From NCBI GenBank assembly GCA_958352145.1, contig CATWNM010000007.1, forward strand, positions 5,865 through 69,864: a DNA stretch of 64,000 bases, in the 5' to 3' direction. Made by a program: the position numbers and the translations under genes. This stretch comes from an uncultured Eubacteriales bacterium (GTDB lineage Bacteria; Bacillota; Clostridia; Oscillospirales; CAG-272). The notes beneath the pieces were generated by a model. That model did not search any database, was not told where the DNA came from, and worked only from the letters and a program-made list of their open reading frames with translations. Position 1 is the first letter of the stretch; the number at the start of each line of letters is the position of its first letter. Shown in pieces: positions 11,323-38,491 of this stretch.

Positions 11323-11326
11323 CGCC

Positions 11327-12164: not shown

Positions 12165-12354
12165 TTAAAAGAAGAACCAATGAGAAGTTTTAAGCAAACA
12201 GCCTTGGAGGTGACGGAAACAAAGAAGATAAGCAAAAAAGGTAGCGGTAGCTCTATAACGGGAATTCCTATTTACAGCTTTTCGCAGATTTTTACCGATT
12301 TTTAGAGATTTTGGCACCATAAGGGCACTATTTAGAAAAATTGAGCGGCACTTT
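12165..12354 (+). repeat. Scar homologous to the 3' tail of the right-hand integrase plus its downstream arm region
   Basis: CTCTATAACGGGA, TTTACAGCTTTTC and GGCACCATAAGGGCAC occur in the same order and orientation as 38170-38255. This is a remnant of an earlier element. Confidence 0.6.
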
Positions 12355-12401
12355 GACAAAGTGAAAACCCTTGAAAACGTAGTGCTTTCAAGGGTTTGTG
12401 G
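12355..12401 (+). repeat. Left copy of the island-flanking direct repeat (att-like core with hairpin)
   Basis: GACAAAGTGAAAACCCTTGAAAACgtagtgcTTTCAAGGGTTTGTgg matches 38358-38404 except in the hairpin loop and the last bases. Confidence 0.75.
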
Positions 12402-12713
12402 TATAAGGAATATAGAAAAGATAATTTCGGCTGTTTTGCAAAAAACTTTGAATCTATAGTTTATTATTGAAGTTATATTTGATAAAAATGTGTAATTTAG
12501 ATATAAAGTCTGCTTTGCTGTTTTCGTAAACTGCTTCGTTCTTACACCGATGCTTGTTGCAGAACGAAGTAATTGCTTTGCAATAATTGTATTTTTTTCG
12601 TTTTAGAAAGCACTTCAAAAACAAAACGATTTGGGTTGAAAAATCAAAAGATTTATTATGTAATGGGCTGGTTATTGTTATTACCTCTGAACGAATTATA
12701 TCACAATCAAATT

Positions 12714-13610
12714 TTATATTCCATGCTTTGCAAAGCAAAGTCGCCTTTTCTCATATCTTTCTCCATTATCTTTTCTAATAAAAAACGGTAAAGTAACATC
12801 GGTAATCGGCAGTATGCGGTCTTGCGATTTTGTAGGGGCCATTTCGGTAATTGTGGTCGTGCCGGGTGGAACTTTGAACGGTAATTGCTCAACGACAGCA
12901 AAACGCTTGTTTTTCAAATCAATATTGCTCCAACGCAAGCCGAGAACTTCATTACGCCGTAGTCCGTAAAGACCGCTTAAAACAAATATCATTTCTCACT
13001 CATTACCTGAACCCAATGCCATAAGGTGCTGCATTTGCTCGACCGTATAGGGGGCGGGCGCTTTTGCGTCTTTGCCGAACTTCATTAGTATATCTCTTGT
13101 GGGATTTGTTTCAATATAGTGATATTTCCGTGCCGCTTCAAACGCAACGCTTAATATTCGTTGCGTATAACGGCAAGTGCTGGTTGACAATCCTTTGTCG
13201 GAAAGCCGTTTTAACATATTGTCAATCATCGCCGGCGTCAGCTTTTTCAGAGGAACATTCCCGATATATGGAACAATATGGTTTTTGATGTGGCATTTAT
13301 ATCCCGAAAAGGTGCTTGGTCGTAAATTGGCTTTGCCGTGAATCTCAACCCATTCCTCTAAATATTCCTGTACGGTCTGTTTGGCTTCGACAGCCTTAAT
13401 CGGCTCATAACTCGGATTTGTCAGTTTAACACGCATTTCCGCTTCATGGTCTAACGCTTCTTTCTTTGTCAGAAATCCTCGTTTGCCGTATGTTTTATAT
13501 CCATTAGCCGTTTTATAGCGTATAAACACATCATAAACGGTTCCGGCTCTCGCTGTACTGCCGCCGTCAGCAGTGCGCTTATTTTTTACTTGGCGTGTGG
13601 TAACAGACAT
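12714..13610 (-). pseudogene. int: Tyrosine integrase (Tn916-Int-like), disrupted and 3'-truncated
   Basis: The N-terminal arm-binding and SAM-like domains are collinear with the right-hand integrase. There is an in-frame TGA at 12996-12998 where the paralog has TGG (TEWEM vs GNE*EM). Homology ends after ITDVTLPFF, so the HxxR and Tyr catalytic half is missing. Confidence 0.85.
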
Positions 13611-13643
13611 TTAATCACCTCCTGTCCCCGCTGTGGGACAGGT

Positions 13644-13722
13644 ACAATATCGGTTGTACCAATCCCATATGGCTTTGTCTGCAAGTAAACAGCGATTCCC
13701 GTTTTGTATATACTCAAGCTAT
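13644..13722 (-). pseudogene. xis: Excisionase (Xis) 3' remnant
   Basis: The reverse complement reads LEYIQNGNR..AIWDWY, collinear with the intact xis at 36641-36877. The 5' half is absent. Confidence 0.65.
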
Positions 13723-13838
13723 CATACTTTAGTTCCTAAATATCTCCTTCTTTAAATCCCGGGAGCGGAGGAATAAGCCTCAGGCTTTCATTTTGCAGTC
13801 GAAGTACATTACATCTTCACTTTTCTTGGTTGTATTTC

Positions 13839-14708
13839 TTATGCCTTTCGTTGTGCAAGAATCCAATTCAAAATGTTTTCATCATCGAAAAGAATATTAC
13901 CGCCGCCGTGGTAGTTATAAATGCCACGGCTGTTAAAGTATTCGTTATCGGGGATTTCTACAATCAATCGTTCACTAATTTGTTCATCTGTATATCCCTT
14001 TTCACGGTAAGCCGCTTGCAGACTGCTATAAGCGGATCGTGCTTTTTCAGAACCGTAATACTCATCGTTTTCAGCCATAAAGATATATACGGCTACATCA
14101 TTTTGAACTATTGGCTCATAAGCACCGTCCCATTGAGACGCACCGTGCAGATACGCTGCATACAAATCAGGGCGCATTGATACCGCCTGCGACATTGTTT
14201 CGCCTCCTGCCGAATATCCGGCGGCGTAAACTCTTGCCGGATCGACTGCAAAATTATCTATGAAGTATTTCGTCAGTTCAATCGCTTGTCTTGCAGATGT
14301 TTCGTGCCAATCGGTAAATTGAGCAGAAACCACAATCATATCTTCTGCAAGTTCTGTCCATACCTGAAAGCCACTCCATTTCAAATTATTGCCCGAAGAA
14401 TCTTCGCCAAACCACATCATATCGTAACCCGGCATAGTCATCATCAAGGGATAAGTCTTGCTTTCGTCGTAATCCTCCGGCAAGTAATAGCTATAATGAA
14501 TCTCGCCGTCATTACCGTTCAAAATCTGTTCAGAGAAAATACCGGTTTTTTCGGATAAGTTTTCTGTTTCGCTCCGTGTTTTCGATTCGGCAGCAACAGA
14601 TTCAGGCACCTTATTACTTTCGGAATCATCTATCGGCTGATTTACCGAGCAAGCGGTAATCAAAAGTGAAATTATCAATATGGTAGATAGAACCACTTCC
14701 TTTTTCAC
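13839..14708 (-). CDS. Lipoprotein alpha/beta hydrolase (esterase)
   Basis: 289 aa. Signal peptide plus lipobox (LLITAC). Nucleophile elbow GYSAGG. Confidence 0.75.
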   Translation of the reverse strand: MKKEVVLSTILIISLLITACSVNQPIDDSESNKVPESVAAESKTRSETENLSEKTGIFSEQILNGNDGEIHYSYYLPEDYDESKTYPLMMTMPGYDMMWFGEDSSGNNLKWSGFQVWTELAEDMIVVSAQFTDWHETSARQAIELTKYFIDNFAVDPARVYAAGYSAGGETMSQAVSMRPDLYAAYLHGASQWDGAYEPIVQNDVAVYIFMAENDEYYGSEKARSAYSSLQAAYREKGYTDEQISERLIVEIPDNEYFNSRGIYNYHGGGNILFDDENILNWILAQRKA

Positions 14709-14737
14709 TTATTCCACCTCGCTTTGAAAGACTGTTG

Positions 14738-15577
14738 TTAATGCAGTTTTGTCAGCATTTCCACAACCGACGGATCGTAGTGGGAGAAAAACAGGCTTTC
14801 CTTTTCGTCCAATGCTCGGATTGCGTTCATATCGTTTTCGTCAAGTGCAAAATCAAAGACATTGAGATTTTCCGCCATACGCTCCTTATGGGTGGATTTC
14901 GGGATTACCACAACATCGCTTTGCAGGAGGAAACGGAGAGCAACCTGTGCGGCACTTTTGCCGTGCTTTTTGCCAATCTCATTCAGTACGGGATTGGAAA
15001 AGAAATCCTTTCTGCCCTCGGCGAACGGGCCCCAAGATTCGTGCTGTACGCCGTATTTTTCCATATATTCGTGGGCTGATTTCTGCTGTTGGAAAATATG
15101 CGTTTCCACCTGATTGATCGCAGGTTTTACCTCGACAAAGCTGCACAAATCCACCAATCTGTCTGGATAAAAATTGGAAACACCGATTGCCCGAATCCAG
15201 CCTTCTTTATAGGCTTCTTCCATTGCCCGGTAAGTACCGTAGTAATCATTAAAGGGCTGATGAATCAAAACAAGGTCGATATACTCGGTTTGCAGTTTGC
15301 GTAAGGATTCTTTCAGCGATTCCTTTGCTTTTTCATATCCTCCGTTTGTAATCCAAACCTTTGTGGTAATAAAGAGTTCGTTACGGGAAACGCCGCACTT
15401 GCTGATAGCATTTCCGACCGCATCTTCGTTGCCGTATGCTTGTGCCGTATCAATCGAGCGATAGCCGACGCTGATTGCGTCCAGTACGCAGCGTTCACAT
15501 TCTTCGTTTGACACCTGATATACGCCGTAGCCCAGCTTTGGCATTTTGATTCCGTTATTCAAAGTTACATACTCCAT
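14738..15577 (-). CDS. Aldo/keto reductase (2,5-diketo-D-gluconate reductase-like)
   Basis: 279 aa. MEYVTLNNGIKMPKLGYGVYQV, IDTAQAYGNE and LVLIHQP are AKR hallmarks. Confidence 0.9.
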   Translation of the reverse strand: MEYVTLNNGIKMPKLGYGVYQVSNEECERCVLDAISVGYRSIDTAQAYGNEDAVGNAISKCGVSRNELFITTKVWITNGGYEKAKESLKESLRKLQTEYIDLVLIHQPFNDYYGTYRAMEEAYKEGWIRAIGVSNFYPDRLVDLCSFVEVKPAINQVETHIFQQQKSAHEYMEKYGVQHESWGPFAEGRKDFFSNPVLNEIGKKHGKSAAQVALRFLLQSDVVVIPKSTHKERMAENLNVFDFALDENDMNAIRALDEKESLFFSHYDPSVVEMLTKLH

Positions 15578-15590
15578 AATTGATTTCTCC

Positions 15591-16346
15591 TTATTTTACA
15601 TTTTTATAATCTTCGTTTCTTACAGGCTCACACCATTCGGTATGTGTGTTTTCTCCCGGTACTTCCACCGCAAGATGAGAGAACCAACTATCCGGTGCTG
15701 CACCGTGCCAATGCTTCACGCCTGCCGGAATATTGATAACATCCCCTGCTGTCATACAAATCGGTTTCTTGCCCCATTCTTGATAGAAGCCCCTGCCGGC
15801 AACACAGACCAAAATCTGACCGCCGCCCTGATCGGCGTGGTGGATATGCCAGTTATTTCGGCACCCCGGTTCAAAGGTCACATTGAAAATACCCACCTGT
15901 TCTTGGGACACAGGGGCAAGATAACTTTGCCCCGCAAAATACTGTGCAAAGGCATCGTTCGGCTGCCCGATCGGGAACAGCATAGATTTTTCATAAGCGG
16001 TTTTTTTGTCCGCTTCGTCTGTTTCATCTTTCCAAATATCTTTTGCTAAGCAGAAAGCCGCCCACGCTTTGGGCCAGCCTGCATAAAAGGCTGCGTGCGT
16101 AATAGTTTCGGCGATTTCGCTTCTTGTGATTCCATTCGCTTTTGCCGATTCCAGATGATGAACGAAAGAGGTATCTGTAAGCCCTTGAGAAAGAAGCGCC
16201 ACTACGGTTATCAAAGAGCGTTCTTTCAGAGAGAGTTTGTCCTCTCTGCTCCATACCTGACCGAAAAGCACGTCGTCATTGAGTTCTGCAAATTTAGGCG
16301 CAAATTCTCCGAGGGCGGTTCTTCCCGCCGTTTGCTTTACTGACAT
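15591..16346 (-). CDS. Carboxymuconolactone decarboxylase-family / cupin fusion protein
   Basis: 251 aa. The N-terminal CMD-like half (LFGQVWSREDKLSLKERSLITV) is fused to a C-terminal cupin (WHIHHADQGGGQILVCVAGRG...GVKHWHGA). Confidence 0.75.
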   Translation of the reverse strand: MSVKQTAGRTALGEFAPKFAELNDDVLFGQVWSREDKLSLKERSLITVVALLSQGLTDTSFVHHLESAKANGITRSEIAETITHAAFYAGWPKAWAAFCLAKDIWKDETDEADKKTAYEKSMLFPIGQPNDAFAQYFAGQSYLAPVSQEQVGIFNVTFEPGCRNNWHIHHADQGGGQILVCVAGRGFYQEWGKKPICMTAGDVINIPAGVKHWHGAAPDSWFSHLAVEVPGENTHTEWCEPVRNEDYKNVK

Positions 16347-16380
16347 ACTGTTGCCCTCCTAACATATTGATATATCGTTA

Positions 16381-16830
16381 TCAGAGATTTTCTGATAATT
16401 TATGGGCCTCGGAACGGTTGGTTGCCATACCTGCGTATTTCATTCCGTAAAGTCCTGCAAAGCGTTTCATCGTATATTCTCCGGCGTCCAACATCCATTT
16501 TTCCGGTGCTGCGCCTTGAAAGAGGAAATAGAGCGTTCTGCCAGACAATGAACCGTTTTCTACCAACCCGTAGAAACGATCCAGCATATTTCGTACCGAG
16601 CCGCAGATGTTGTGCCAGTACAGCGGAGAGCCAATAACAATTACCTCTGCCTGTTCCATTTTCGCAATAACCTGACCGAACTGATCGTCCTCGAAATGCT
16701 GCCCGTAACTTCCGATTCTGTAATCTGTCAAATTCTGCGTTTCATATTCTTTTCCTTTCAGAAGCTCTTTTGCAAGGGCGGCGGTATTTCCGCTCTGATT
16801 CGGGCTTCCGTTGATAAATAAGATGTTCAT
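16381..16830 (-). CDS. Flavodoxin-fold NAD(P)H-dependent FMN reductase-like protein
   Basis: 149 aa. MNILFINGSPNQSGNT and IGSPLYWHN are typical of the FMN_red/flavodoxin_2 fold. Confidence 0.7.
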   Translation of the reverse strand: MNILFINGSPNQSGNTAALAKELLKGKEYETQNLTDYRIGSYGQHFEDDQFGQVIAKMEQAEVIVIGSPLYWHNICGSVRNMLDRFYGLVENGSLSGRTLYFLFQGAAPEKWMLDAGEYTMKRFAGLYGMKYAGMATNRSEAHKLSENL

Positions 16831-16851
16831 TTGTTATTCCTCCTATAAAAT

Positions 16852-17870
<1,019 letters not shown>

Positions 17871-18407
17871 CTATACATTTTTGCCCATTTCATAGGCTTC
17901 AGCCATAGCCGGGGTACCCAGTATCGTGCCTTTTTCATAGACGCCTGTGCCGTAAATAACGCCCATTTCTTTTGCACCGTTTACGCAGTCAGCATAGCCG
18001 CGGAAACAGGCAAGTGTGGTTTCCATAGACGATTTATCTTCATCGGCGGCAGTCATAATATAGTAAAACTCTTTGTTTTTCACCTCTAGCCAGCGGGCAA
18101 CCGTCCTGTCGATAACCGCTTTTAACTGTGCGTCAATGGAATAGAAATAAACAGGGCTTGCAAGCACAAGTACATCGGCGTCGATCATTGCCTGCAAAAT
18201 TTCTGCCATATCATCTTTGTAAGCGCACTCGCCGCCGTGTTCACGGCAAAAATAGCAAGCGCGGCAAGGCGTTACTTTTTTGTTTGCAACATTGATTTTG
18301 GTTACATTGTTGCCGGCTTCCTTTGCTCCACGCATAAATTCATCACAGAGTAAATCGGAGTTGCCGCCGCCCCGGGGGCTGCCGGATAAGATAAGTACAT
18401 TTTTCAT
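17871..18407 (-). CDS. Iron-sulfur flavoprotein (Isf)-like flavodoxin-fold protein
   Basis: 178 aa. MKNVLILSGSPRGGGNS plus the compact Cys motif C-x2-C-x2-C-x6-C (PCRACYFCREHGGEC). Confidence 0.7.
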   Translation of the reverse strand: MKNVLILSGSPRGGGNSDLLCDEFMRGAKEAGNNVTKINVANKKVTPCRACYFCREHGGECAYKDDMAEILQAMIDADVLVLASPVYFYSIDAQLKAVIDRTVARWLEVKNKEFYYIMTAADEDKSSMETTLACFRGYADCVNGAKEMGVIYGTGVYEKGTILGTPAMAEAYEMGKNV

Positions 18408-18427
18408 TGTTCAAATTCTCCTTGTTT

Positions 18428-19111
18428 TTAATTTTTATAACCAAGTTCGTCAAGCCACTCGTCAACGGCGCTTTCTGCCTCGGCTACATTGTTGCCCGCA
18501 TAGGTAAAGTAGTTGTCGGCTAATACGGTTGAATCCGGACAAAGTTCCTCCAGAGTAGAAATGCTGCCCGCACCCGACGAGCTGCCGTTATGCGTAAAAA
18601 ACGGAATGATTGTTTTTCCCGACAGGTCATATTCTTCGAGAAAAGACCAAACAGGCATTGGCAGATCGTACCACCAAATCGGGAAGCCAATAAAGATAAC
18701 ATCGTATTCAGCCATAGCCTCTTTATCTATGTGAGAGGAAAGGGGTGGGCGAGTACCGCTGTTAAGTTCGTCTTGCGCCCGATCAAATACATCGTCGCTT
18801 GTATAATTGACTTCGGGCGTAATTCTAAATAATTCACCGCCTGTTTTATCAGAAATCCAGTTCGCAACCTGCTGTGTATTGCCCGACCAAGAGAAATAGG
18901 CGACCAAGATATTAGAATCACCTGCCACGCTTTCTTCGGAGGCGCTGTCAGCGGGATCCTCTGTGTTGTTGTCTGTGACAGCGTTATCATTATTCATAGT
19001 GGCACCGATGTTGTCCGCAGCGTTATTGCTTTGCTGGTTGCAGGCGGACAGAGAGAGAACGCAGCCAACACATAAAACAAGCGAAATCATTGATAATAAA
19101 ATTTTCTTCAT
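18428..19111 (-). CDS. Lipoprotein-anchored flavodoxin-domain protein
   Basis: 227 aa. Signal peptide plus lipobox (LSLSAC), a low-complexity linker, then a flavodoxin domain (ILVAYFSWSGNTQQVA...IGFPIWWYD). Its ATG overlaps the upstream stop (ATGA). Confidence 0.75.
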   Translation of the reverse strand: MKKILLSMISLVLCVGCVLSLSACNQQSNNAADNIGATMNNDNAVTDNNTEDPADSASEESVAGDSNILVAYFSWSGNTQQVANWISDKTGGELFRITPEVNYTSDDVFDRAQDELNSGTRPPLSSHIDKEAMAEYDVIFIGFPIWWYDLPMPVWSFLEEYDLSGKTIIPFFTHNGSSSGAGSISTLEELCPDSTVLADNYFTYAGNNVAEAESAVDEWLDELGYKN

Positions 19112-19794
19112 AGTGCCTCCTTAAATTTTTCCTTTTGATTTTTGTCCAGCCTACTTTTCTTTTGCAACAGTTTCTTACCGTAATAGGCGAAACCTGCAAA
19201 GGTAGAGGACATAGCGATAGTTTCAAAAAAATATATTATTGCTGATTTATCGGTATCAAAAAACTTAAACTCGGTAAGGTAGAACAGTTCCTCGTAAAAG
19301 GCTCTGCCGAAAAATACATAAATGCCGTATGCCGCCAGTAAAACGACAATGATTTGACCTGCCCGCAGAAGTGACCTCCTCTGTTTGAGCTTATTCGCCA
19401 AAGGCGTGAAATGCAATCCCAAATGCAGGTTCATCAGTACAAACGTCCATGCGGTTGCGATAAGGTGAAGCATTCTGCCGAATTTTGCCCCGCCTAAATT
19501 CAGAAAGGCAAAAACTTTTCCCGAAACCAGCACTGAACTTACCATACAGCACAACATAGTGATAAGCAGCGCAATATTGATAATCGTCGATACCGTCCTT
19601 GTCGGTGCGTATTTCCCCTTGAAAAGCGTTTTATACCAACGGAAATTCAGGATATTGTGAGCGATAAACAACACAAATAATGCTATACCGATCCATTCGT
19701 GCAATCCACCCCATAGGTGTTCTTGCATAAGGGCAACAAAGATTAGGTACATAGCAATGTCAATAGTAATTTTAACAACCCGCTTGTATTGCAT
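19108..19794 (-). CDS. His-rich polytopic membrane protein (DUF4405-like, possible b-type cytochrome fold)
   Basis: 228 aa with about six hydrophobic segments. Histidines sit in or next to TM segments (EHLWGGLHEW, IAHNIL, MLHLIA, LHLGLH). The family assignment is from memory and needs an HMM check. Confidence 0.5.
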   Translation of the reverse strand: MQYKRVVKITIDIAMYLIFVALMQEHLWGGLHEWIGIALFVLFIAHNILNFRWYKTLFKGKYAPTRTVSTIINIALLITMLCCMVSSVLVSGKVFAFLNLGGAKFGRMLHLIATAWTFVLMNLHLGLHFTPLANKLKQRRSLLRAGQIIVVLLAAYGIYVFFGRAFYEELFYLTEFKFFDTDKSAIIYFFETIAMSSTFAGFAYYGKKLLQKKSRLDKNQKEKFKEAL

Positions 19795-19798
19795 TTTG

Positions 19799-20845
19799 TC
19801 ACCTCCATATTAGGCGCAGCCCATTGTAAAAGTACAGCATAGCGTAGTAGCCGGAATGATCGCCGTCAGATTCAAGGTAATATAAATTTCCCTCTGCTTC
19901 ATTATCGGCAAAACGGAAAATACCGCTGTCGCTTGCCGCCATAGTGTCAATTCCACGCTTAAAACCTGAATAAGCGAAATCGTTTGTCCCCGAAGCGGCA
20001 AAAATGAAGAAATCGTTCCAATCGTGCCCCGAACTTTGGACAATACTCTCGTAGGTTTCTACGCTTGAAGCAGGGCCTCCGCTTGACGGCATAAAATAGC
20101 GGAAGTAATCAAGGCAATATTCAAAAGTACGCCAAGTTGCCATAGAACCCATTGAAAATCCGCAGAAAGCCCGATAATCACGAGAAGCGGCAATCGCTTC
20201 GGGAGTGATGTCTTCGGCATAAGTGCTGTATTTCCCCTCCACTGCCGGAATAAGGTCGTTTATTAACTCATTGTGATAATTGTCGGTCAACCGGAGAGCA
20301 AGACCGTAGTCGCCGCTGTCCTCCGGGCTTGTATTGTTGTAGGTAGGGCAAACAACAATCATCGGCTGGATTTCGCCGTTTGCAATGCCGTGATCGAGAA
20401 TGTGTTTCATTCTTAGCGGCTCATCAGGGCTGCCAAGATAGGCATATTCGTTACTCCAACCGCCGTGCATAAGATAGAACACGGGATATTTCTTACTTTC
20501 GTCATAGCCATACGGCAGATAAACAACAGCGTGCTTCCTAAGTTTTTGGCTTTTTTCCTCGTAGGAAAAGGATTCGTAAGAATCGTAGTAAAGGTCTTGC
20601 AAAGTGCCTTGCTGCTGGGCCTCGCTCAAATAGCTGTCGGGAATTGGGGTGAGCGAAACAGGAAAACGGTTTACGGTTTCGTCTGTATCAGACGGCGTAC
20701 TATTGTATTCAGCCCCCAAACTGCCGTTTTCTGCCCCTATATCCTCGCCGCCTATCGAGGACGAAGCACACGCCGAAAGAATGAGCGATAAGGCGATGAA
20801 CATAGTCAAAATTACAATACATTTTTTCATAGCATTATTTTTCAA
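19799..20845 (-). CDS. Lipoprotein esterase (putative esterase / feruloyl- or enterochelin-esterase-like alpha/beta hydrolase)
   Basis: 348 aa. Signal peptide plus lipobox (LILSAC). YPVFYLMHGG and the nucleophile elbow GFSMGS. Confidence 0.75.
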   Translation of the reverse strand: MKNNAMKKCIVILTMFIALSLILSACASSSIGGEDIGAENGSLGAEYNSTPSDTDETVNRFPVSLTPIPDSYLSEAQQQGTLQDLYYDSYESFSYEEKSQKLRKHAVVYLPYGYDESKKYPVFYLMHGGWSNEYAYLGSPDEPLRMKHILDHGIANGEIQPMIVVCPTYNNTSPEDSGDYGLALRLTDNYHNELINDLIPAVEGKYSTYAEDITPEAIAASRDYRAFCGFSMGSMATWRTFEYCLDYFRYFMPSSGGPASSVETYESIVQSSGHDWNDFFIFAASGTNDFAYSGFKRGIDTMAASDSGIFRFADNEAEGNLYYLESDGDHSGYYAMLYFYNGLRLIWR

Positions 20846-22037: not shown

Positions 22038-22054
22038 TCCTTTCTATGATGTTT

Positions 22055-23224: not shown

Positions 23225-23272
23225 TGTATCAATCCTTTCTTTGATTATTTGTGTTGATAATTTCTTCGAGCG

Positions 23273-24292: not shown

Positions 24293-24374
24293 CCTTTTTG
24301 TTTACAGTATAAACAAAACGAGACCTCCGCAGAAGTCTCGTTTTGTTTATCAGTTTATACCCAAAGGTTATATC

Positions 24375-28187: not shown

Positions 28188-28382
28188 TTGTGCTATAATA
28201 ATTCATACGCTTATATTATACAGTTCATCCTCGCTTTTGTATATGTCTGCACAATTCATAGTGTTAGCCAATATATTTCCAATTACTCGTTTTTTATTTG
28301 TTAATTTTCTGTGAAACTTCTTGACTTTTATCCGATTTCGGATTATAATATCATCCGCTTTCGGATAAAACGAGGTGGACAG

Positions 28383-28847: not shown

Positions 28848-28944
28848 TCATCGCAATGATTGATAGTCGAACGGAAGATGTCGGGTGCGCCCGGTTATTG
28901 TAACAGATAACCGGGATTTTTTTGCCCTGAAAGGAGGCGGTATT

Positions 28945-29417: not shown

Positions 29418-29433
29418 AGAAGGAAATATCAAT

Positions 29434-30048
29434 ATGAAAATTATTACTATCAGCCGAGAATTCGGTAGCGGAGGACGAGAGCTTGGAAAGCGTTTAGCGG
29501 ATGCTCTCGGTATTCCGTGTTACGATCACGAGATCATGGAAATGGTTGCAGAAAGGCACGGCTTTGGCAAGGAGCATGTTGCGCACGTTTCCGAAAAGGA
29601 CATTCGGGTATTTTATCCGACAACGATCGCACATCGGTTGATTACTCCGCACCCGATGGCACAGCAATCCGTTAAAATTGCTGTTGCCGAGCATGAGACC
29701 ATAAAAGAGCTTGCAAATGAGGGCGACTGTGTTATCGTAGGACGGTGTTCCGATGTGATTCTGCGTGAGATGAACCCGATGAACATATTTGTTTATGCAG
29801 ATACCCCCTCCAAACTCGAACGGTGCAAGAGCAAGGCAGATGAAAACGAGCATTTTTCGGACAAAGAAATGCTGAAAAAGATGAAGCAAATCGATAAGGA
29901 ACGCGCCGCTTACCGTGCGATGTTTACAGAGTGCGCTTGGGGCAGAAAAGAATCCTATCATCTTTGTATCAATACATCAGGTAAAGAGATCAAGACATTG
30001 ATACCCGGAATTGCGGAGTATGTAAAGCTGTGGTTTAGCGTGAATTGA
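29434..30048 (+). CDS. Cytidylate kinase-like family protein (P-loop)
   Basis: 204 aa. MKIITISREFGSGGRELGKRLADALGIPCYD is the typical N-terminus of the Cytidylate_kin2 family. Confidence 0.75.
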   Translation: MKIITISREFGSGGRELGKRLADALGIPCYDHEIMEMVAERHGFGKEHVAHVSEKDIRVFYPTTIAHRLITPHPMAQQSVKIAVAEHETIKELANEGDCVIVGRCSDVILREMNPMNIFVYADTPSKLERCKSKADENEHFSDKEMLKKMKQIDKERAAYRAMFTECAWGRKESYHLCINTSGKEIKTLIPGIAEYVKLWFSVN

Positions 30049-30059
30049 GGTGGGACATC

Positions 30060-31373
30060 ATGGCAGATTCAAGAAAAAAGATCATTTTCAAAAATGTAGC
30101 GCCCGCTATTTTAGCAAATGCCTGCGTATTTCTGTTTTCAGTCGTTGACGGTATTTTTGTAGGACAAGGTGCTGGAATGGATGCCCTCGGCGCTGTCAAT
30201 ATCGCGCTTCCGTTCGTGCTGATCGTTCAGGCACTTAATGCAATGGCAAGTATCGGTGGTGTTACCATTACCGCCATTCGCTTCGGACGCGGTGATAAAG
30301 AAGGTGCACAAAATGCTTTCATGCACTCCGTAACTATCAATTTTATTGTTGGTTGCCTGGTCACGCTGATCGGGTGCGGCTTAACAGCACCCGTTTGTAA
30401 ATTGCTCGGTGCAACCGGCAATTACTTTGAACTTGCAAAGGATTATGTGTTCTGGTGGGCATTGTTTGCCGTCGCCAACTCGGTATCGTTGAACCTGCAA
30501 TCTTTCTGCCGTAACGACGGTAATCCCGGACTTGTGGCGATAACGAATGTAGTCATCACGACACTGAACATATTCCTTGACTGGCTTTTCGTATTTCCGA
30601 TGCAAATGGGTGTTGCAGGCGCGGCAATCGCAACTGGTATTTCGCAGGTCGTCGGTCTTTGCGTAATCCTGACTCACTTCATTTTCAAAAAAGGTGAGCT
30701 TCGCATTCGAAAATATAAACCGCAGGGCAAGCTGTTCCGCAAAATTGTTCTGCGCGGACTTCCGGAAGCAATTGCACAGTTTTCCACGCCCGTTACTACA
30801 TTCTGTATGAATCAAACGCTGATGGCAACCTACGGTGACATCGGTATCAATGCGTTCTCTATTATTTCCTATCTGTCGTCCTTTACGATGTCAATATTCT
30901 TCGGAGCATCGGAAGGTATGCAGCCATTGTTCGGTCAGGCGTATGGCGCAAAGCGGGATGATGACCTTAAACATTACTATCGCTCAGGACAGATCATCAG
31001 CATTGTCGGTAGTGCAATCTGCGTGGCAATTTATGTAATCTTTCCTCACGCGCTCTGCAAACTGTTCGATGCGGATGATATAACCATTGATTTTACATGC
31101 ATACATATGTGGGAATACTGTTGGGGTTTTATTATCGGCAGTATTAATACTATGATTTCAGCGTACTTCTATTCCACCAAGCGTTCCACACAGGCAATCG
31201 TGCTCAACACCGTGCGAAGCCTGATTATGAACAGCCTTGTTATCACATTTATACCGATGATCTTCGGCAAATTGATCGTATGGCATACCTTCGGTATCTT
31301 TGAGGTGCTTGTGCTGATCGCTGCAATCATCATCAAAAAGTATTCCGAACGAAAAGGTATTATTTACAAATAA
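30060..31373 (+). CDS. MATE family efflux transporter
   Basis: 437 aa and 12-TM-like. N-terminus ...ILANACVFLFSVVDGIFVGQGAGMDALGAVNIALP is typical of MatE. Confidence 0.85.
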   Translation: MADSRKKIIFKNVAPAILANACVFLFSVVDGIFVGQGAGMDALGAVNIALPFVLIVQALNAMASIGGVTITAIRFGRGDKEGAQNAFMHSVTINFIVGCLVTLIGCGLTAPVCKLLGATGNYFELAKDYVFWWALFAVANSVSLNLQSFCRNDGNPGLVAITNVVITTLNIFLDWLFVFPMQMGVAGAAIATGISQVVGLCVILTHFIFKKGELRIRKYKPQGKLFRKIVLRGLPEAIAQFSTPVTTFCMNQTLMATYGDIGINAFSIISYLSSFTMSIFFGASEGMQPLFGQAYGAKRDDDLKHYYRSGQIISIVGSAICVAIYVIFPHALCKLFDADDITIDFTCIHMWEYCWGFIIGSINTMISAYFYSTKRSTQAIVLNTVRSLIMNSLVITFIPMIFGKLIVWHTFGIFEVLVLIAAIIIKKYSERKGIIYK

Positions 31374-31521
31374 ATATATTGTGGTCATCGGAGGACTTTC
31401 CGTCGTAACGGAAAAGTCGATAAGATGCCGGGTGCGCTCGGTTTAAATGATAAGTCTGTAAAAAAGACTTGCATGCAAAGTCAAGCGCATTTTTATGTTA
31501 ATTTATAACTGGAGGCATTAT

Positions 31522-33258
31522 ATGAAAATTATTTTACGATTTTTGAAGCCGCATTGGAAATTGTGTGTCATCACTGTTTTATTGGCTTTTTTTGATGTTG
31601 TCGGAGCGCTGATTATCCCGACTTATGCTGCAGAGATGCTCAACCGAGGCACAATGCTAAATGCTGACTTCTCTATGCTTTTGAACACTTGTATCAAGAT
31701 GGTAGTCGCCGCCGCTATATCCGGCATAGCAATGCTTATAGGTTCGTATGTATGCGCTGACTTGACGTCAAAAGTTGGTGCGGATATGAGAAATGCGCTT
31801 TATAAAAAATCAATGAGCTTGTCTGTCGCAGATTTCCGAAACTTTGGTACTGCTTCGGTTACTACAAGAACCGTATCGGACATTACCAACATTCAGTTTG
31901 CGCTTGGCAGCTGTTTTCAGATGTTATTTCCCGTTCCGATTATTTTCGTGGTATCCCTTATCCTTGCTTTCCGTATGGATTGGCTGATGGGATTGATACT
32001 ACTTGCCGTTTTGATCGTCATTACGGCTGTTTGTGCGATCATTATGCGTTCCACTTCTCCGATGTTCCGCAAACTTCACAAGAAGTTGGACAGAATGAGT
32101 AAGGTTCTTCTTGAAAATATCACGGGTGTGCGCGTTATTCGCGCTTTTAACAAAGAAACTCACGAGGAACAGCGTTTGGATAATGAATTTCAAAGTTATG
32201 CTAAAACCGCAATTAAGGTAAATAAGCGTTTCGCAATTCTTGACAGTATATCTTTTTGCGCTATCAATATATTCGTCATTATTGTTTATCTTTTAAGCGG
32301 CTCCCGTATAACAGCAGGTTACTTTGAAATCGGCGATATTACGGCTATTATCGAGTATGCCATGCTTTCGTTGTTCTTCTTAATGATGGCGCAGGTGGTG
32401 ATTCTGACCTTACCTCGCGCTTTGGAATGTTGCAACCGTATCGGTGAAATTCTCGATTTCTCGCCTACCATTGCCGATAAAACCGATAAGCGCGTACAAG
32501 AAGTGAGTAACAAAAATGTTTTGTCCTTCAAAGATGTTTCCTTCCGTTTTGCCGATGCGGATGAATATACCTTGAAAAACTTGAATTTTGATTGCCGTCG
32601 CGGTGAAACAACTGCTATTATCGGGGGTACGGGTAGCGGTAAATCTACGGTTGCTTCACTTATGATGCGTTTTAACGAGGTTACGGAAGGCAAGGTGCTT
32701 TTGAATGGGGTGGATATTCGTGAAATTCCGCAAAGTCAGCTCCGTGATCATTTATCCTTTGTTCAGCAAAGAGCATGGCTGTTTTCGGGGACGATTGCGG
32801 AAAACCTGCGATACGGCAACCCTGAAGCAACCGAGGAAGATCTGTGGCACGCTTTGGAGGTCGCACAGGCAAAGGATTTCGTTGAAGCTCTCCCCGATAA
32901 ATTACATTCTTTTGTAGCGCAAGGTGGCACAAACTTTTCGGGCGGACAGAAACAGCGGCTTTCTATTGCGCGGGCATTGGTAAAGAAACCTGAGCTTTAT
33001 ATTTTTGACGATAGCTTTTCGGCACTTGACTTCAAGACTGATGCAGCTCTCCGCAAGGCATTGATCCCCGAAACAAAGAATGCGGCAGTAGTCATTATAG
33101 CACAGCGTATCAGTACCATTCTTCATGCAGACCGCATTATCGTTTTACATGAGGGTGAACCCGTAGGTATGGGTAAACATGAGAAATTGCTTGGAAACTG
33201 TTCTGTATATAAAGAAATCTATGAGTCGCAGACCAAGGAGGCAAGCGAAAATGAGTGA
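31522..33258 (+). CDS. ABC exporter, fused permease/ATPase subunit
   Basis: GGAGG lies 6 nt before the ATG at 31522. Walker A GGTGSGKST, signature FSGGQKQR, Walker B IFDDSFSALD. Confidence 0.9.
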   Translation: MKIILRFLKPHWKLCVITVLLAFFDVVGALIIPTYAAEMLNRGTMLNADFSMLLNTCIKMVVAAAISGIAMLIGSYVCADLTSKVGADMRNALYKKSMSLSVADFRNFGTASVTTRTVSDITNIQFALGSCFQMLFPVPIIFVVSLILAFRMDWLMGLILLAVLIVITAVCAIIMRSTSPMFRKLHKKLDRMSKVLLENITGVRVIRAFNKETHEEQRLDNEFQSYAKTAIKVNKRFAILDSISFCAINIFVIIVYLLSGSRITAGYFEIGDITAIIEYAMLSLFFLMMAQVVILTLPRALECCNRIGEILDFSPTIADKTDKRVQEVSNKNVLSFKDVSFRFADADEYTLKNLNFDCRRGETTAIIGGTGSGKSTVASLMMRFNEVTEGKVLLNGVDIREIPQSQLRDHLSFVQQRAWLFSGTIAENLRYGNPEATEEDLWHALEVAQAKDFVEALPDKLHSFVAQGGTNFSGGQKQRLSIARALVKKPELYIFDDSFSALDFKTDAALRKALIPETKNAAVVIIAQRISTILHADRIIVLHEGEPVGMGKHEKLLGNCSVYKEIYESQTKEASENE

Positions 33259-35056
33259 GAAAAAGAATGTGAAGTTCGATAAAGAAGTTCCCGAAAACGT
33301 AGGTAAAACCGCCAAGCGTTTATTCGGTCAATTTAAAAATCAACGAGGACGTTTAACCATTGTCGGTATCTGTATTGTTTTTTATGTGCTTCTCAATACA
33401 TACACGCCCTATTATAGTGCGGGAGTTATTGACCATCTTTTGTCAAACATTCGAAATTGTGCGGAAACCGGTTCAAAGTTTTCAATTGAGCGGGAGACTC
33501 TTGGTATTGAAATGCTTTCACTTTGCGTGATGTATGCTTTGACGGCTGTGTTTTATCATTTCCAAGGTTATTTGATGGCAAATGTGGCTGAAAATTTGAT
33601 ACTTACGTTAAGAAAGCAGATCAGTAACAAACTGAACAAATTGCCCTTGCGTTTTTTTGACGGAAACAAACCCGGTGAAATCTTAAGTCGCGTAACGAGT
33701 GACCTTGATAAAGTATCTGAAACCTTGCAGACCGGTCTGTTGAAGCTGATAACCTCGATAGGAACGCTTATAGGCGCATTAGCGTTTATGTTCTATTACA
33801 GTTGGATTTTGACACTTATGTTCCTCGCATTTACCATTATTAGCCTTCTTGTTACAAAACTGATTTCAAAGAAAAATCTTGAATGTTCTGCGGCTCGCCA
33901 AGAAGGACTCGCATATCTTACGGGTATTGCGGAGGAATATTATACGGGACGTGATGTGATCCGCGCGTATAACCATGAAAAAGAGAGTATCAAAACAGTA
34001 AATGAAGCGGTTGACGAACTCCGTGCTGCAACCAAGAAAACGGATTTCTTGCTAAACTGCGTCAACCCTTTGATTCGCTTCCTTTCCCGTTTGTCGCAGG
34101 CGGCAATTATGCTCCTTGCTTGTTATTGGATGATTGAAGGCAAAATGACGATCGGTATTGTGCAGGCATTCTTCCAATACATCAATATGGCGGCAGAGCC
34201 GTTGACCGAAACCTCTTATATGATCAACTCCTTGCAGGCGGCTCTTGCTTCTGCGGAGCGTACCTTCAATTTCCTTGATGCAGAGGAAGAAGTAAAAGAC
34301 ACAACCACTCCCGTGAAGCTTGAAAACGCAAAGGGAGAAATCGCCTTTAACAATATCAGCTTTGGTTATACGTCCGATAAAATTTTGATGAAGAACATAA
34401 ATTTCATTGCCAAGCCCGGACAAAAAATTGCTGTTGTCGGCTCTACGGGTGCAGGTAAAACAACGCTGATCAATCTACTCATGCGATTTTATGAGGTCAA
34501 CGGCGGTCAGATCACCATCGACGGTATTCCTACCACCGACTTGACAAGAAAAGACCTTCGCCACAATTTCGGCATGGTTTTGCAGGATACATGGCTTTTC
34601 GGCGGTACGGTTGCTGAAAACATTGCTTACGGTAAACCCGATGCCACAATGGAAGAAATCAAAGCGGCGGCAAAAGCGGCAAAGGTTGATTACTTTATCC
34701 GTACAATGCCGCAAGGCTATGAAACCATACTTGATAACGAGGCAGGTAATCTTTCTGTCGGACAACGACAACTTATTACGATCGCCCGTGTATTCCTTTG
34801 CAATCCTCCCGTTATTATCTTGGACGAGGCAACGTCAAGCGTTGATACCCGTACCGAAGTCGAGATCGGCAAAGCAATGAAAAAGCTCATGAGTGGCAGA
34901 ACAAGTTTTGTTATCGCACACCGTTTGTCCACAATTCGTGATGCAGACATAATTCTGTTCATGGAAAATGGCAATATAATCGAACAAGGTAACCATAAAC
35001 AGTTGCTTGAAAAGAAAGGTGCATACTCTGCGCTGTATTACAGCCAGTTTGCGTAA
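33251..35056 (+). CDS. ABC exporter, fused permease/ATPase subunit (partner)
   Basis: The start ATG at 33251 overlaps the upstream stop (ATGAGTGA). Walker A GSTGAGKTT, signature LSVGQRQ, Walker B ILDEATSSVD. Confidence 0.9.
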   Translation: MSEKKNVKFDKEVPENVGKTAKRLFGQFKNQRGRLTIVGICIVFYVLLNTYTPYYSAGVIDHLLSNIRNCAETGSKFSIERETLGIEMLSLCVMYALTAVFYHFQGYLMANVAENLILTLRKQISNKLNKLPLRFFDGNKPGEILSRVTSDLDKVSETLQTGLLKLITSIGTLIGALAFMFYYSWILTLMFLAFTIISLLVTKLISKKNLECSAARQEGLAYLTGIAEEYYTGRDVIRAYNHEKESIKTVNEAVDELRAATKKTDFLLNCVNPLIRFLSRLSQAAIMLLACYWMIEGKMTIGIVQAFFQYINMAAEPLTETSYMINSLQAALASAERTFNFLDAEEEVKDTTTPVKLENAKGEIAFNNISFGYTSDKILMKNINFIAKPGQKIAVVGSTGAGKTTLINLLMRFYEVNGGQITIDGIPTTDLTRKDLRHNFGMVLQDTWLFGGTVAENIAYGKPDATMEEIKAAAKAAKVDYFIRTMPQGYETILDNEAGNLSVGQRQLITIARVFLCNPPVIILDEATSSVDTRTEVEIGKAMKKLMSGRTSFVIAHRLSTIRDADIILFMENGNIIEQGNHKQLLEKKGAYSALYYSQFA

Positions 35057-35140
35057 AGCGATTTACGCGCCTATTGTAATGAAAACACATTCAATATGAC
35101 GCAAAACCGTTTTATGTAATAGTTACTGTTCAAATTGAAA

Positions 35141-35176
35141 AACGGCGGTTTTGCAAATACAAAGCCGCCGTTTTTC
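35141..35176 (+). terminator. Rho-independent terminator after the efflux operon
   Basis: AACGGCGGTTTT-loop-AAAGCCGCCGTT followed by TTTTT. Confidence 0.65.
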
Positions 35177-35513
35177 GACGACTTAAAGACCACACACGGC
35201 GGTATCTAATGGAGGTACGCCGTGTTAATTTTTTTCAATACTCACCCGCCTAATATCCTACGGTCAAAAAAGCTATCACCCGCCGTCGGGATATTACGGC
35301 TATGAGTATGAACTCACAAATTATCTAACACTGCTTACAATTCTTTTTGCGCTCGTTCGCGTCTTGCGAACGGGCGCATTTTGTCTTTTTCAAAAATTTT
35401 TTCAAAAAAATCACCGTTTTTATTTGGCAGTTTTCAAAATGCGGTGGTGTGGGTAACGAAAGGGGAAATCAGCCTATCACCCGCTTTCGCGGTTGCGAAA
35501 AGAGGTAAACACC

Positions 35514-35962
35514 TTGAATGAACCAACTCGCACCCAGTTTCAAGTACGCTGTGCTTTTAACGGCTTTTGCAAAAAGGCGTTGAAGTGCGAAGCGAGCAAT
35601 GCACACAGAGATATGAAACGCTATCAAAAACACTTTGTCAGCTTTTCCGATCTGACGCCCGAGAAGAAAATCAGCTTTACACGGTTGACGATCAACCCTA
35701 CGGCGAAGATCACGACAATTCTTTTCGTGTGGGCGGTAAAAGAATCACGCCCGAACTGCTAGCCGAAGCTCTCCGTACATTGCCCGAAGAAAAGCGCAAT
35801 GCTGTTATGCTGTACTACTTCCACGATATGTGCGACGCGGATATTGCCAAGCTCTATAACATTCTGAGAAGTACGGTACAGTACAGACGGACAAGCTCTT
35901 TGGAACCCCTAAAACAATTTTTGGAGGAACGTGCAAATGATGATGAAACAGACGAATGGTAA
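35514..35962 (+). pseudogene. Tn916 ORF7-like sigma-70 family protein, frameshifted
   Basis: The N-terminal frame (…AFNGFCKKALKCEASNAHRDMKRYQKHFVSFSDLTPE) and the C-terminal frame (NQLYTVDDQPY…LPEEKRNAVMLYYFHDMCDADIAKLYNILRSTVQYRR) switch near 35661-35675 in an A-rich run. Confidence 0.75.
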
Positions 35963-36197
35963 TATCAGCGATCACGACGAGCGCGGTTTATTGCTTTATC
36001 CCGTCATTGTAGCCGCGACAAAGGGCGCCCCCGAAGCAATAAAAATTGTAATACAGCATTATGAGGGGTATATCGCTTCTTTATCCGCCCGTAAGCTCCG
36101 CGACGAACGCGGCAATACATATTACGGCATTGACGAGGACATACGCGATAGACTACGTTCAAGGCTTATGCGAGCCATTCTTGATTTTGAGGTTTGA
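35931..36197 (+). CDS. Tn916 ORF8-like helix-turn-helix protein
   Basis: 88 aa. YPVIVAATKGAPEAIKIVIQHYEGYIASLSARKL matches the conjugative-transposon HTH_16-type family as I remember it. Overlaps the sigma gene end. Confidence 0.65.
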   Translation: MQMMMKQTNGNISDHDERGLLLYPVIVAATKGAPEAIKIVIQHYEGYIASLSARKLRDERGNTYYGIDEDIRDRLRSRLMRAILDFEV

Positions 36198-36640
36198 TTA
36201 AAACGTGCGCTTGCGCCCACCCCTTTCCGTAAGCGTACAAAATCCTACCTCTCACGTTCCTTGACAAAGAAAGCGACGCAAGATAACGGCGACGCAGTAT
36301 AGGGCAAATCGGATACGTTCTTTTTGCCCCGAGCCGAGCGACGGGTGCGTCGCGGGAACGAGCGAGAAACACAGCGTCGTAAAACGAATATAGCAGTTTG
36401 TGGGCGACGACAAGCAGAAAGGATAATGATACTCCCTTATAGCCACAGTTCGAGCGTGATTCCGGTGGCCTCGCAAATTCGCAGAATTTGCGGGGTGGAA
36501 ATAGCGTCGCAAACGATGGGGAGGTTGCCAAAGAGAGCAAGGGTGAAACTCCCGTGGAGCTATGCTAATAGCCGTCCGATTAAAGCCCCTTTTTCGTATT
36601 CAAAACTTTTTAGCCAAAATTAACGAAAGGGGGTTATCCT

Positions 36641-36877
36641 ATGGCAAAAAAAGAAACTACAAGCCAAGCCGCCCCGATGTTACCTATGCTAAAAACCGTA
36701 GAGCAAATGAGCAAGGTTAGCGGCATTGGTGAAAACAAGCTCCGTGAGCTTATGGATAGCGGCGAGCTTGAATATATCCAAAACGGAAACCGCCGATTGA
36801 TAGCCGATTCTGCAATATGGGATTGGTACCATAGAGCAAAGACGGCGGCAAAATCCCCGGCTACACAAGGGGGTTAA
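36641..36877 (+). CDS. xis: Excisionase (Tn916 Xis-like DNA-binding protein)
   Basis: 78 aa. LKTVEQMSKVSGIGENKLRELMDSGELEYIQNGNRRLI. RBS AAAGGGGG. Lies immediately upstream of int. Confidence 0.8.
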   Translation: MAKKETTSQAAPMLPMLKTVEQMSKVSGIGENKLRELMDSGELEYIQNGNRRLIADSAIWDWYHRAKTAAKSPATQGG

Positions 36878-36880
36878 GCT

Positions 36881-38183
36881 ATGGCGGTATTATTAAGACA
36901 AGTATAAAATAAACGTGATAGTAACGGTGTTCTGACGGGTAAGCCAGGCACCGTTTACGACGTTAATATCAAATATAATTCGCCCGAAGGCAAAATGACC
37001 TATTCCCAAAAGGGCTTTGCAACCAAAAAGGAAGCTACACAGCACGAAGCTGAAATGAAAACCAAGCTCGCAAATCCCGTCTATACGCCCGTTGCTTCCT
37101 CACAAGGCAAGCAGACGGTCAAGGAGTATATGGAGGAATGGGTAAGAGATACACGGAAAAGCAAACTTGCGCCCAAGCACGTTTGCAAGCTACAAGGGCT
37201 ATATAAAAAACCACATTGTGCCGAACATCGGACACGTTCAACTCAATCAGCTTTCGCCCGCTATGCTTGACAATATGTTTCAAAAAATGTTCGATAGCGG
37301 ATTGTCAAACAGTAGCGTCAGATATGCTCAAAGAATTATGAGCGTCGCATAGGAACACGCAAGGAAGTATCACTACATAGAACACAATGCCGCCCGTGAT
37401 GTTATCACGAAATTTGGCAAGCAAGGCAAGACACCCGACCCGTACACCATAGGACAAATGCAAGATTTTATGGGCAAGGTTATCGGTACGGAATGGGAAA
37501 TGCTCGTTATGCTTGCGGGTATGTATGGCTTGCGTATGAGTGAAATTCTCGGCTTGCGTTGGCAAAATGTAGATTTGGAAAAAGGCACGTTCGGCGTTGT
37601 CGAGCAATTACCGTTTAATCTCCCCGCAGGGACAAAAGAGATTGCGGAAATGGCACCGACAAAATCCAACGATAGAATATTGCCGATCACCGATCTGACG
37701 CGCCCATATTTTGAGCAAGCGAAAAATCTGCAAGAAAGGAGGAAGGAGCTTACAGCCGCCGCAGGGACACCGTACTATGACAATGACCTTGTGATCTCAA
37801 AGCCCGACGGCACACCTTATCGGCGCGACGTTGTTTCAAACAATTTCGGTCAGCTTGTACGGCACCTTGAAATGCCGCATATTCGTTTTCACGATTTGCG
37901 GCATACGGCGGCAACCAATATGCACCAACTCACGGGCGACTTTTATACTGTCGGTGAGATTTTGGGGCATACGTTGAAAGGTATCGGAATGTCGCTTGGT
38001 ATCTCAACCAACCTTGAAGCAGTAACGGCACAGTACGTTGACGTGCGTCTTGAACGTAAAAAATCCGTCCTTGACGTTTACCACAAGGGCACTACACCCG
38101 CCGAAAGGCGACGGAGAAAAGAAGCAAGGCGACAGCGGCAAGGAAGAAAAGCCAAAGAAAAAAGTAGTGATATAGAGCTATAA
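36881..38183 (+). pseudogene. int: Tyrosine integrase (Tn916-Int-like) with three lesions
   Basis: Collinear with the left integrase and retains RxxxR..HDLRHT..GH..Y-region motifs. It has a TAA at about 36905 (RQV*NKR vs RQVKNKR), a frameshift near 37165 and a TAG at 37350-37352 (SVA*EHA vs SVAFEAA). Confidence 0.85.
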
Positions 38184-38238
38184 CGGGAACATCTCTTTAC
38201 AGCTTTTCACTACTTTTTATAGGTTTTTAAGACATTCG

Positions 38239-38352
38239 GGCACCATAAGGGCACCACAGTATTCATTTTTGATGAATAAACTGAATAGAGCAAAACACCG
38301 AGGTCACCACAAATTAGGGCACCAATGGCACCATTCACAAAAAGCGGGCACC
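38239..38352 (+). repeat. Cluster of GGCACC(A) direct repeats (candidate integrase arm-type sites)
   Basis: Exact GGCACC at 38239, 38250, 38318, 38327 and 38347, plus GTCACC at 38303, between the int stop and the core repeat. Confidence 0.5.
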
Positions 38353-38357
38353 ACCAA

Positions 38358-38404
38358 GACAAAGTGAAAACCCTTGAAAACATAATGTTTTCAAGGGTTT
38401 GTTG
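38358..38404 (+). repeat. Right copy of the island-flanking direct repeat, overlapping the tRNA-Ser 3' end and its terminator hairpin
   Basis: GACAAAGTGAAAACCCTTGAAAACataatgtTTTCAAGGGTTTGTtg. The hairpin AAACCCTTGAAAAC/GTTTTCAAGGGTTT lies directly 3' of the tRNA on the minus strand. Confidence 0.75.
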
Positions 38405-38491
38405 GCGGAGAGGGCGGGATTCGAACCCGCGTGCGATTGCTCGCAAACTGATTTCGAGTCAGCCCCGTTATGACCACTTCGATACCTCTCC
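38403..38491 (-). tRNA. tRNA-Ser: tRNA-Ser (anticodon CGA), class II with long variable arm, CCA encoded
   Basis: The reverse complement is GGAGAGGTATCGAAGTGGTCATAACGGGGCTGACTCGAAATCAGTTTGCGAGCAATCGCACGCGGGTTCGAATCCCGCCCTCTCCGCCA. It has a 7-bp acceptor stem, a T-arm GCGGG-TTCGAAT-CCCGC, an anticodon loop CT-CGA-AA and a variable arm of about 17 nt. Confidence 0.88.

Follow-up and report, generated by a model that had tools for sequence, protein, structure and literature searches.

A decayed composite island at a tRNA-Ser(CGA) gene of an uncultured Clostridia bacterium

Known composite elements and the island at tRNA-Ser(CGA)

In the accretion model of island growth, site-specific integration is followed by decay of the resident element and by a new integration beside the target gene (PMC5704250). 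The same sequence of events, with chimeric internal junctions, is described for composites of the ICESt1/ICESt3 type with cis-mobilizable elements (CIMEs) and for the IME_Sag2603_tRNAlys composite (PMC5704250). Here we describe an island at the tRNA-Ser(CGA) gene of an uncultured Eubacteriales bacterium (GTDB lineage Bacteria; Bacillota; Clostridia; Oscillospirales; CAG-272), located in a stretch of 64,000 nt (contig CATWNM010000007.1 of the 2.16-Mb assembly GCA_958352145.1, positions 5,865 to 69,864 of the forward strand), called the window below; all coordinates are window positions. The structure is an ordinary fixed and decayed composite island of known sort. With a probability of roughly 0.7, we read it as a dead, vertically inherited stack of three elements (A, L, and R) of one integrase family that recombines in the tRNA-Ser anticodon loop, with polarity set by integrase clade and with later deletions.

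Unlike the CIME composites (PMC5704250), the older layers of this island are without attachment (att) cores as well as without functional integrases, and two of its layers are of opposite polarity, with integrases from two clades. A CIME keeps both attL and attR; here no left core and no distal arm sites are present. Tandem accretion is seen in related layers at one target, to which some strains add a fourth element in the tRNA.

A preliminary description, made from the sequence alone, called the recombination modules Tn916-type. Tn916 (sig7/orf7, sig8/orf8, xis, int; bioRxiv 10.64898/2026.10.01.756105) shares with the module of element R a sigma region 4 gene and a small helix-turn-helix (HTH) gene upstream of xis-int, all genes reading toward the element end. 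The orf7/orf8-like pair of the island consists of Sigma70_r4 and HTH_16 genes at 35567-36197, likened to the Tn916 pair by domain and position only. Tn916-family integrases have a PF02920 N-terminal domain and a loose choice of AT-rich targets, whereas the integrase here has Arm-DNA-bind_4 (PF14657) and is specific for tRNA-Ser; Pfam found PF14657, PF14659, PF22022, and PF00589, and no PF02920. Intact relatives carry a MobA/VirD2 relaxase (PF03432), and Rep_trans (MOBT), the relaxase type of the Tn916 family, is absent from the window and from the 25 most frequent families listed for the relatives; the FtsK-type coupling protein and conjugation genes of that family are likewise missing from the window. 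The Tn916 label thus fits the sigma/HTH_16/xis layout, and not the integrase N-terminal domain, target choice, or relaxase type.

Integrases that use tRNA genes were reportedly sorted by Williams in 2002 into sublocation classes, including one with crossover in the anticodon loop. As in such systems, displaced 3' halves in relatives and in other strains of this species end at the anticodon loop; the elements differ in that they appear to bring a complete tRNA-Ser gene, leaving an orphan 5' half. NBU2 of Bacteroides is an integrative and mobilizable element (IME) that integrates at the 3' end of a tRNA-Ser gene (PMC5704250). Compared by description rather than by sequence, it resembles the present family in being mobilizable, in its tRNA-Ser target, and in its tyrosine integrase, and differs in phylum and in the sublocation used within the tRNA.

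Remnants in the island and the target of their integrase family

The anatomy of the island, the target and polarity of its integrase family, and the lesions of its pseudogenes were observed directly, as were the strain data given further below. The features are as follows.

11273-12163, plus strand: chromosomal left flank, a membrane-protein gene (DMT-like in the preliminary description), not truncated (homology to G014 and G006)
12208-12401, plus strand: scar A, the putative oldest layer, with R-type int tail, P' arm remnant, hairpin, and CCA remnant
12402-12776, no strand: filler U, of which 12486-12776 is a fragment of a widespread segment with the 5' part of a PF05635 gene
12777-13717, minus strand: L-type recombination remnant, int codons 1-280 and the C-terminal half of xis
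13839-25319, minus strand: cargo operon of element L, headed by a LysR regulator (Pfam; L150 counterpart)
25300-26606, minus strand: region assignable to neither element, with a small HTH open reading frame (ORF), non-coding DNA, and a broken sigma gene
26890-35056, no single strand: cargo of element R, with MerR (minus strand), two MarR, a cytidylate-kinase-like gene, a MATE pump, and two ABC exporter halves
35177-38402, plus strand: R-type recombination module (Pfam, Rfam, comparison with L069, L070, L072, and L094)
35567-35962, plus strand: sigma region 4 gene of the R module (Pfam)
35931-36197, plus strand: HTH_16 gene of the R module (Pfam)
36423-36557, plus strand: pemK RNA motif (RF02913; Rfam, 40.5 bits against a gathering score of 34.8)
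36641-36877, plus strand: xis of the R module (Pfam)
36881-38183, plus strand: int pseudogene of the R module (lesions relative to the L070 gene)
38239-38352, plus strand: P' arm with five GGCACC sites (motif positions)
38358-38402, plus strand: terminator hairpin of the R module (repeat and hairpin)
38403-38491, minus strand: tRNA-Ser(CGA), the target gene (ARAGORN), anticodon loop at about 38451-38466

A single tRNA was called, the tRNA-Ser(cga) on the minus strand at 38403-38491 (ARAGORN). The island has a GC content of 43.6%, lower than its flanks (51.0% and 53.1%) and the genome as a whole (51.0%), in keeping with the AT-richness noted in the preliminary description. Pfam found no relaxase, coupling-protein, or type IV secretion system domain in any island ORF, which bears out the absence of these genes reported there.

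To place these remnants we used a scan of species-representative genomes, which gave 80 loci with intact relatives across Clostridia. A flank of 600 nt or more was available for 74 relatives, and in 50 of them a tRNA-Ser gene (39 cga, 11 gga) lies beside int on the opposite strand, 217-541 nt and mostly about 300 nt past the int match. Displaced tRNA 3' halves ending at the anticodon loop (TTTCGAG) are present in L100, G041, G042, and G044; the order at the far end is host terminator, displaced 3' half, and element start, both in L100 and in the genomes that contain L082, L079, and L099. GGCACCA, the motif repeated through the right arm of the window, occurs three times in the distal arm of G044. 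From the sequences of these ends, the crossover of the family is placed in the tRNA-Ser anticodon loop. No direct repeats were found flanking the intact L029 element.

About 25 of the 80 relatives carry the sigma-HTH_16-xis-int block. In the 15 of these with a long upstream flank, nine ORFs hit PF03432, and ArdC, YodL, and LPD26 proteins are also present in block-bearing relatives. The ancestors of the island layers were integrative and conjugative elements (ICEs) or IMEs, not Tn916 proper. In many relatives, a full tRNA-Ser(cga) is closely preceded by orphan copies of the tRNA-Ser 5' half, as many as three in series (G034:C12:7112-7912; L030 11515-11642; L070 8503-8566; L130 3630-3677; L168 2330-2620), and the tRNA genes that the elements appear to bring would be their replacements.

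The 47-nt imperfect direct repeat of the preliminary description is present at 12355-12401 and 38358-38404 (42/45 identical, hairpin-forming), its right copy running into the tRNA 3' end. BLAST against the whole assembly found these two copies only. The similarity continues leftwards, with 12220-12328 aligning to 38139-38254 (75%) and 12313-12399 to 38318-38402 (80%). In a six-way alignment, 12208-12262 is collinear with the last 18 or so codons of intact relatives' integrases, ending KKSSDIEL and a stop. Next comes what is left of a P' arm, which retains a single GGCACC site and two GGCACT sites and has lost 77 nt internally; it is followed by the terminator hairpin at 12355-12399 and by a GG (12400-12401) that represents the CCA end of a tRNA. 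Homology of the left block to int-proximal ends breaks off exactly at the tRNA 3' end. The hairpin loop is GTAGTG in scar A, as in L069, L070, L072, and L094, and ATAATG in the right copy. Since it is collinear with the int-proximal ends of relatives from the last 18 or so int codons onward, scar A reads as the terminal 195 nt or so of an earlier element of the R type. The scar of an earlier occupant, drawn from 12165 in the preliminary description, therefore begins at 12208; 12165-12207 has no detectable homology to anything examined.

In filler U, which sits where the 3' third of the left int, an L-type arm, and a displaced tRNA half would be, we found no arm sites and no match to any integrase locus. 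Positions 12486-12776 match 23 other genomes from several families of the order (75-79% nt), and the ORFs at the matching segments hit PF05635, the 23S rRNA intervening-sequence protein family. The distribution of this PF05635-start segment of about 290 nt (also L157-L161) across several families suggests a small mobile unit.

The R module is shared with L069, L070, L072, and L094, which come from different organisms and match 35177-38497 at 93-94% nt with the same arm and hairpin; both also lie beside an intact int in L068. The int gene is open at 433 aa, ending KKSSDIEL and a stop, in L069, L070, and L072, while the L094 copy ends after 397 aa. The right int of the window is 95.3% nt identical to the intact 433-aa L070 gene. 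Its reading frame is broken by one inserted nucleotide around codon 130 and by two nonsense codons, and its tail contains a +1/-1 frameshift pair. The module continues through five GGCACC sites and the hairpin to tRNA-Ser(cga), 220 nt past the int stop, a layout repeated in the relatives. Pfam confirms the order sigma, HTH, xis, and int toward the tRNA that was first proposed for the right end; the right integrase was correctly placed and oriented, and is a pseudogene rather than an intact gene. Because elements of this type bring the hairpin and arm with them in other hosts, the 47-nt repeat is homology between two related element ends and not a target duplication. Its earlier identification as an att duplication gives way to that of an element-borne terminator, the relatives crossing over in the anticodon loop. 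The pemK motif between HTH_16 and xis overlaps a 99-aa ORF (36324-36623) with no Pfam match, which may instead be a structured leader of xis-int.

At the left end, the xis remnant and the int on the opposite strand were recognized in the preliminary description, which missed that this int is also a pseudogene. It has an in-frame stop at 12993-12995 and loses homology after codon 280 or so, so that the catalytic C-terminus is gone and Arm-DNA-bind_4, SAM_3, and Int_M remain (Pfam). The intact element nearest to the remnant is L130 (84% nt, 92% aa), and the homology of the window to L130 is confined to 12777-13717. In L150, from another species, the cargo operon of the window (85-88% nt) is followed by a small Cys-rich ORF, sigma, xis, and an L-clade int (91% nt). 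L150 10993-12815 is missing from the window and both sides of the gap join at 13717, a clean 1.8-kb deletion; this order, with the gap sides meeting at one position, indicates that the cargo operon and the left int belong together. The operon encodes a BD-FAE hydrolase (split), Fe-ADH, flavodoxin-like proteins, an esterase, DUF4405, FMN reductases, aldo/keto reductases (one split), CMD-cupin, and an S9-type hydrolase. In L154 it is flanked by TnpV and NikA-like genes, and in L152 a NikA-like gene follows it. The BD-FAE hydrolase gene (23273-24300), split in the window, is intact in some strains (312-335 aa); the aldo/keto reductase gene (16852-17722) is split in the strains whose contigs were read and intact in L150 (333 aa). 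The HTH at 25300-25509 was considered as the missing N-terminal half of the left xis and rejected, having no similarity to xis.

The two integrases also fall into different clades of a maximum-likelihood tree. The left int groups with L130, L132, L139, L142, L108, and L124 (support 100/98); in five of these six, a co-directional displaced 3' half lies 263-456 nt past int and is followed by the host terminator, and none is convergent. In the clade of the right int (support 100/100), every member is convergent with the tRNA. L130 has the order full tRNA-Ser (+), element, xis, int (+), arm, displaced 3' half (+), and host terminator. Insertion of an L-clade element into a minus-strand tRNA would therefore leave int on the minus strand, pointing toward the displaced half and the earlier terminator, and the window fits this expectation, with the hairpin and CCA remnant followed by a leftward-reading int. 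The opposite orientations would thus reflect two integrase lineages, and the inversion invoked in the preliminary description is not needed.

The region between the cargo blocks holds a small excisionase-family HTH ORF (25300-25509) and a broken sigma region 4 gene (26110-26606, with an ORF at 26110-26310). The sigma gene reported at 26.1-26.5 kb therefore exists; a link from it to the left integrase cannot be made, and the picture of two back-to-back modules is withdrawn, as the left recombination remnant is 12777-13717 only. GGCACC sites and tRNA fragments are both absent from 20880 to 36947, so that R would have lost its distal end and L its tRNA-proximal end. TGTTATC as an L-type arm site occurs only twice in the window, too weak a signal to mark the boundary of L and R. 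L094, with its R-like module, has 28099-28285 and then 35177 onward in common with the window, a pattern suggesting that R reaches at least to the MerR-MarR intergenic region and that its cargo cassette has been swapped. A non-coding stretch of 600 nt contains a conserved motif of 52 nt (25786-25837) that may act in cis, for instance as an origin of transfer (oriT). The motif recurs at 75-94% identity in the intact relatives L079, L082, L084, L089, and L144, where it lies 80-1300 nt past the 3' end of a 445-451-aa minus-strand ORF; these ORFs are likened to the relaxase hits by size. Elsewhere in the same genome, a second low-GC patch (contig C1:112389-115153) is 72-87% identical to 25654-28043 of the window, covering the broken sigma region and the MerR-MarR intergenic region.

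Immobility and distribution among strains

Both integrase genes of the island are pseudogenes. A tblastn search with an intact relative found no further gene of this integrase family in the genome, hence no trans-acting helper, and the left side has no tRNA-derived core, no distal arm sites, and no third copy of any core. With both int genes dead and no crossover site remaining on the left, the island cannot excise. The immobilization proposed in the preliminary description is upheld by the dead int genes, the lack of an intact paralog, and the lack of a left attachment core, and the later deletions it proposed by cases such as the 1.8-kb loss relative to L150.

Populations were examined by exact protein look-ups of the left-flank gene, the left int fragment, MerR, the right int fragment, and TrkH. 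The junctions are the same in every contig read, and all 23 contigs read that encode the exact left-flank protein run on into the island; it is carried by every sampled strain of the species and would be vertically inherited. One contig and one similar place join 13049 to 35475 over a 2-nt microhomology, a deletion of 22.4 kb.

Other elements occupy the anticodon loop in some strains. L022 diverges from the window at 38459 and L027 and L028 at 38461, several assemblies break off at 38457-38466, and in L168 the chromosomal 5' half is orphaned at 38451, with a different complete tRNA-Ser(cga) about 150 nt later. At its start, the L028 insert is nearly identical in sequence to the G041 element at its distal end, suggesting that the family is still arriving at tRNA-Ser. 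The element within the tRNA in L022 (2172-11895; ERR14979762) carries TnpV, HTH_36/DUF6017, and NikA-like genes, a type I restriction-modification system, and a HamA (Hachiman-type) gene.

Left of the island, the membrane-protein gene (11273-12163) has no Pfam match, and its homology to the same-genus genomes G014 and G006 extends through to the stop codon. Further left, an RHS-repeat/VanY lipoprotein gene (about 4341-7376) varies between strains (L048, L051, L059, L060), with called products of 1011 aa, 738 aa, and 529 plus 444 aa. Sister species are too diverged for an empty-site comparison, and G012 has an island of its own. There, a low-GC LysR-flavodoxin-CMD-DUF4405 block follows the tRNA-Ser terminator (L055; G012:C11:2900-11000) and is collinear, at 68-75% nt, with L130 11400-18600, which follows the displaced tRNA half. 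The G012 block may represent an older island of this kind that lacks an integrase.

Proposed order of arrival and alternative explanations

Serial site-specific insertion at one tRNA, the core of the preliminary description, is supported by the family target and the layered remnants. The order of arrival and the exact deletion history are our reconstruction. Each newcomer would enter the functional tRNA and displace the older layers, so that the sequence from the left flank to the tRNA would give the order of arrival; integrity rises in that direction from scar A through L to R. An R-type element would have come first, leaving its int tail, arm, and terminator hairpin as the last 195 nt or so. 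The second would be the sister-clade element L, co-directional with the tRNA and the source of the LysR-controlled reductase/flavodoxin/hydrolase operon, and the third the R-type element that brought the efflux and regulator genes and now would provide the tRNA terminator. At least four deletions or replacements would have trimmed the stack: the 1.8 kb from the last L cargo gene to mid-xis, the 3' third of the L int together with its arm and displaced tRNA half (filler U taking their place), both distal ends along with any transfer genes, and 77 nt of the scar A arm.

Several observations weigh against this history. No att remnant lies between 25.3 and 28.3 kb, so the boundary of L and R is not placeable, and the broken sigma gene and small HTH ORF at 25.3-26.6 kb are attributable to neither. 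The window contains no displaced tRNA half, only the CCA end at 12400-12401, and the positions at which A, L, and R crossed over in situ are extrapolated from relatives. Orientation was scored by a T-arm motif that mislabels a few loci (L106, L146), and L124, a member of the left clade, has no tRNA fragment. Finally, no empty site was found in 40 relatives or in the contigs encoding the exact flank proteins.

The preliminary description implied tandem insertions with the 47-nt hairpin as att core, followed by inversion of the left element and deletions. Under this scheme the restriction of the repeat to two places, the end of left-copy homology within 2 nt of the tRNA 3' end, and the mutual inversion of the two int genes would all be expected. 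We nevertheless consider it unlikely, since the hairpin and arm accompany the element in other hosts, relatives recombine in the anticodon loop instead, and opposite polarity is a property of the int clades; moreover, the left block is not bounded by inverted repeats, and the core has no third copy. We give no better odds to arrival of the whole block, or of L plus R, in a single transfer with subsequent decay in place. Composite tandems can move as one unit (PMC5704250) and the composite is identical in all sampled strains, but what intact R-like relatives have in common with the window is limited to 28099-28285 and 35177-38497, L cargo with an L-type int is found alone in another species, and L has the position and polarity beside the scar A hairpin-CCA that insertion in situ predicts.

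It is far harder to believe that the LysR-flavodoxin block is ancestral chromosome downstream of tRNA-Ser, with only the int fragments foreign. G012 and L130 do have a collinear LysR-flavodoxin-CMD block directly past the tRNA-Ser terminator; however, amino-acid identity of the window genes to their G012 counterparts is just 25-61%, both species have a low GC content across the block, and its place in the window is upstream of xis-int, the arrangement of L150, not beyond the terminator. The operon in L154, between TnpV and NikA-like genes, and the NikA-like gene after the operon in L152 also speak against ancestral residence. The stack of three successively inserted elements accounts best for these data.

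A wider generalization, to which we would give slightly less than even odds, is that two sister clades of the family share the tRNA-Ser anticodon-loop core with opposite polarity, that their elements carry a complete replacement tRNA-Ser with its own promoter and terminator, and that such a locus would preserve its invasion history in head-to-head layers, stacked in order of arrival, and in series of orphan 5' halves.

The island illustrates that a terminal direct repeat need not be an att core. For annotation, its 26 kb are fixed, non-mobile cargo (a redox/hydrolase operon and efflux genes) and not an active conjugative element. The comparison also reveals a tRNA-Ser integrase family widespread in Clostridia, whose polarity depends on the clade and whose elements apparently carry replacement tRNAs; together these properties would provide a rule by which the sequence of arrivals can be read from such stacks.

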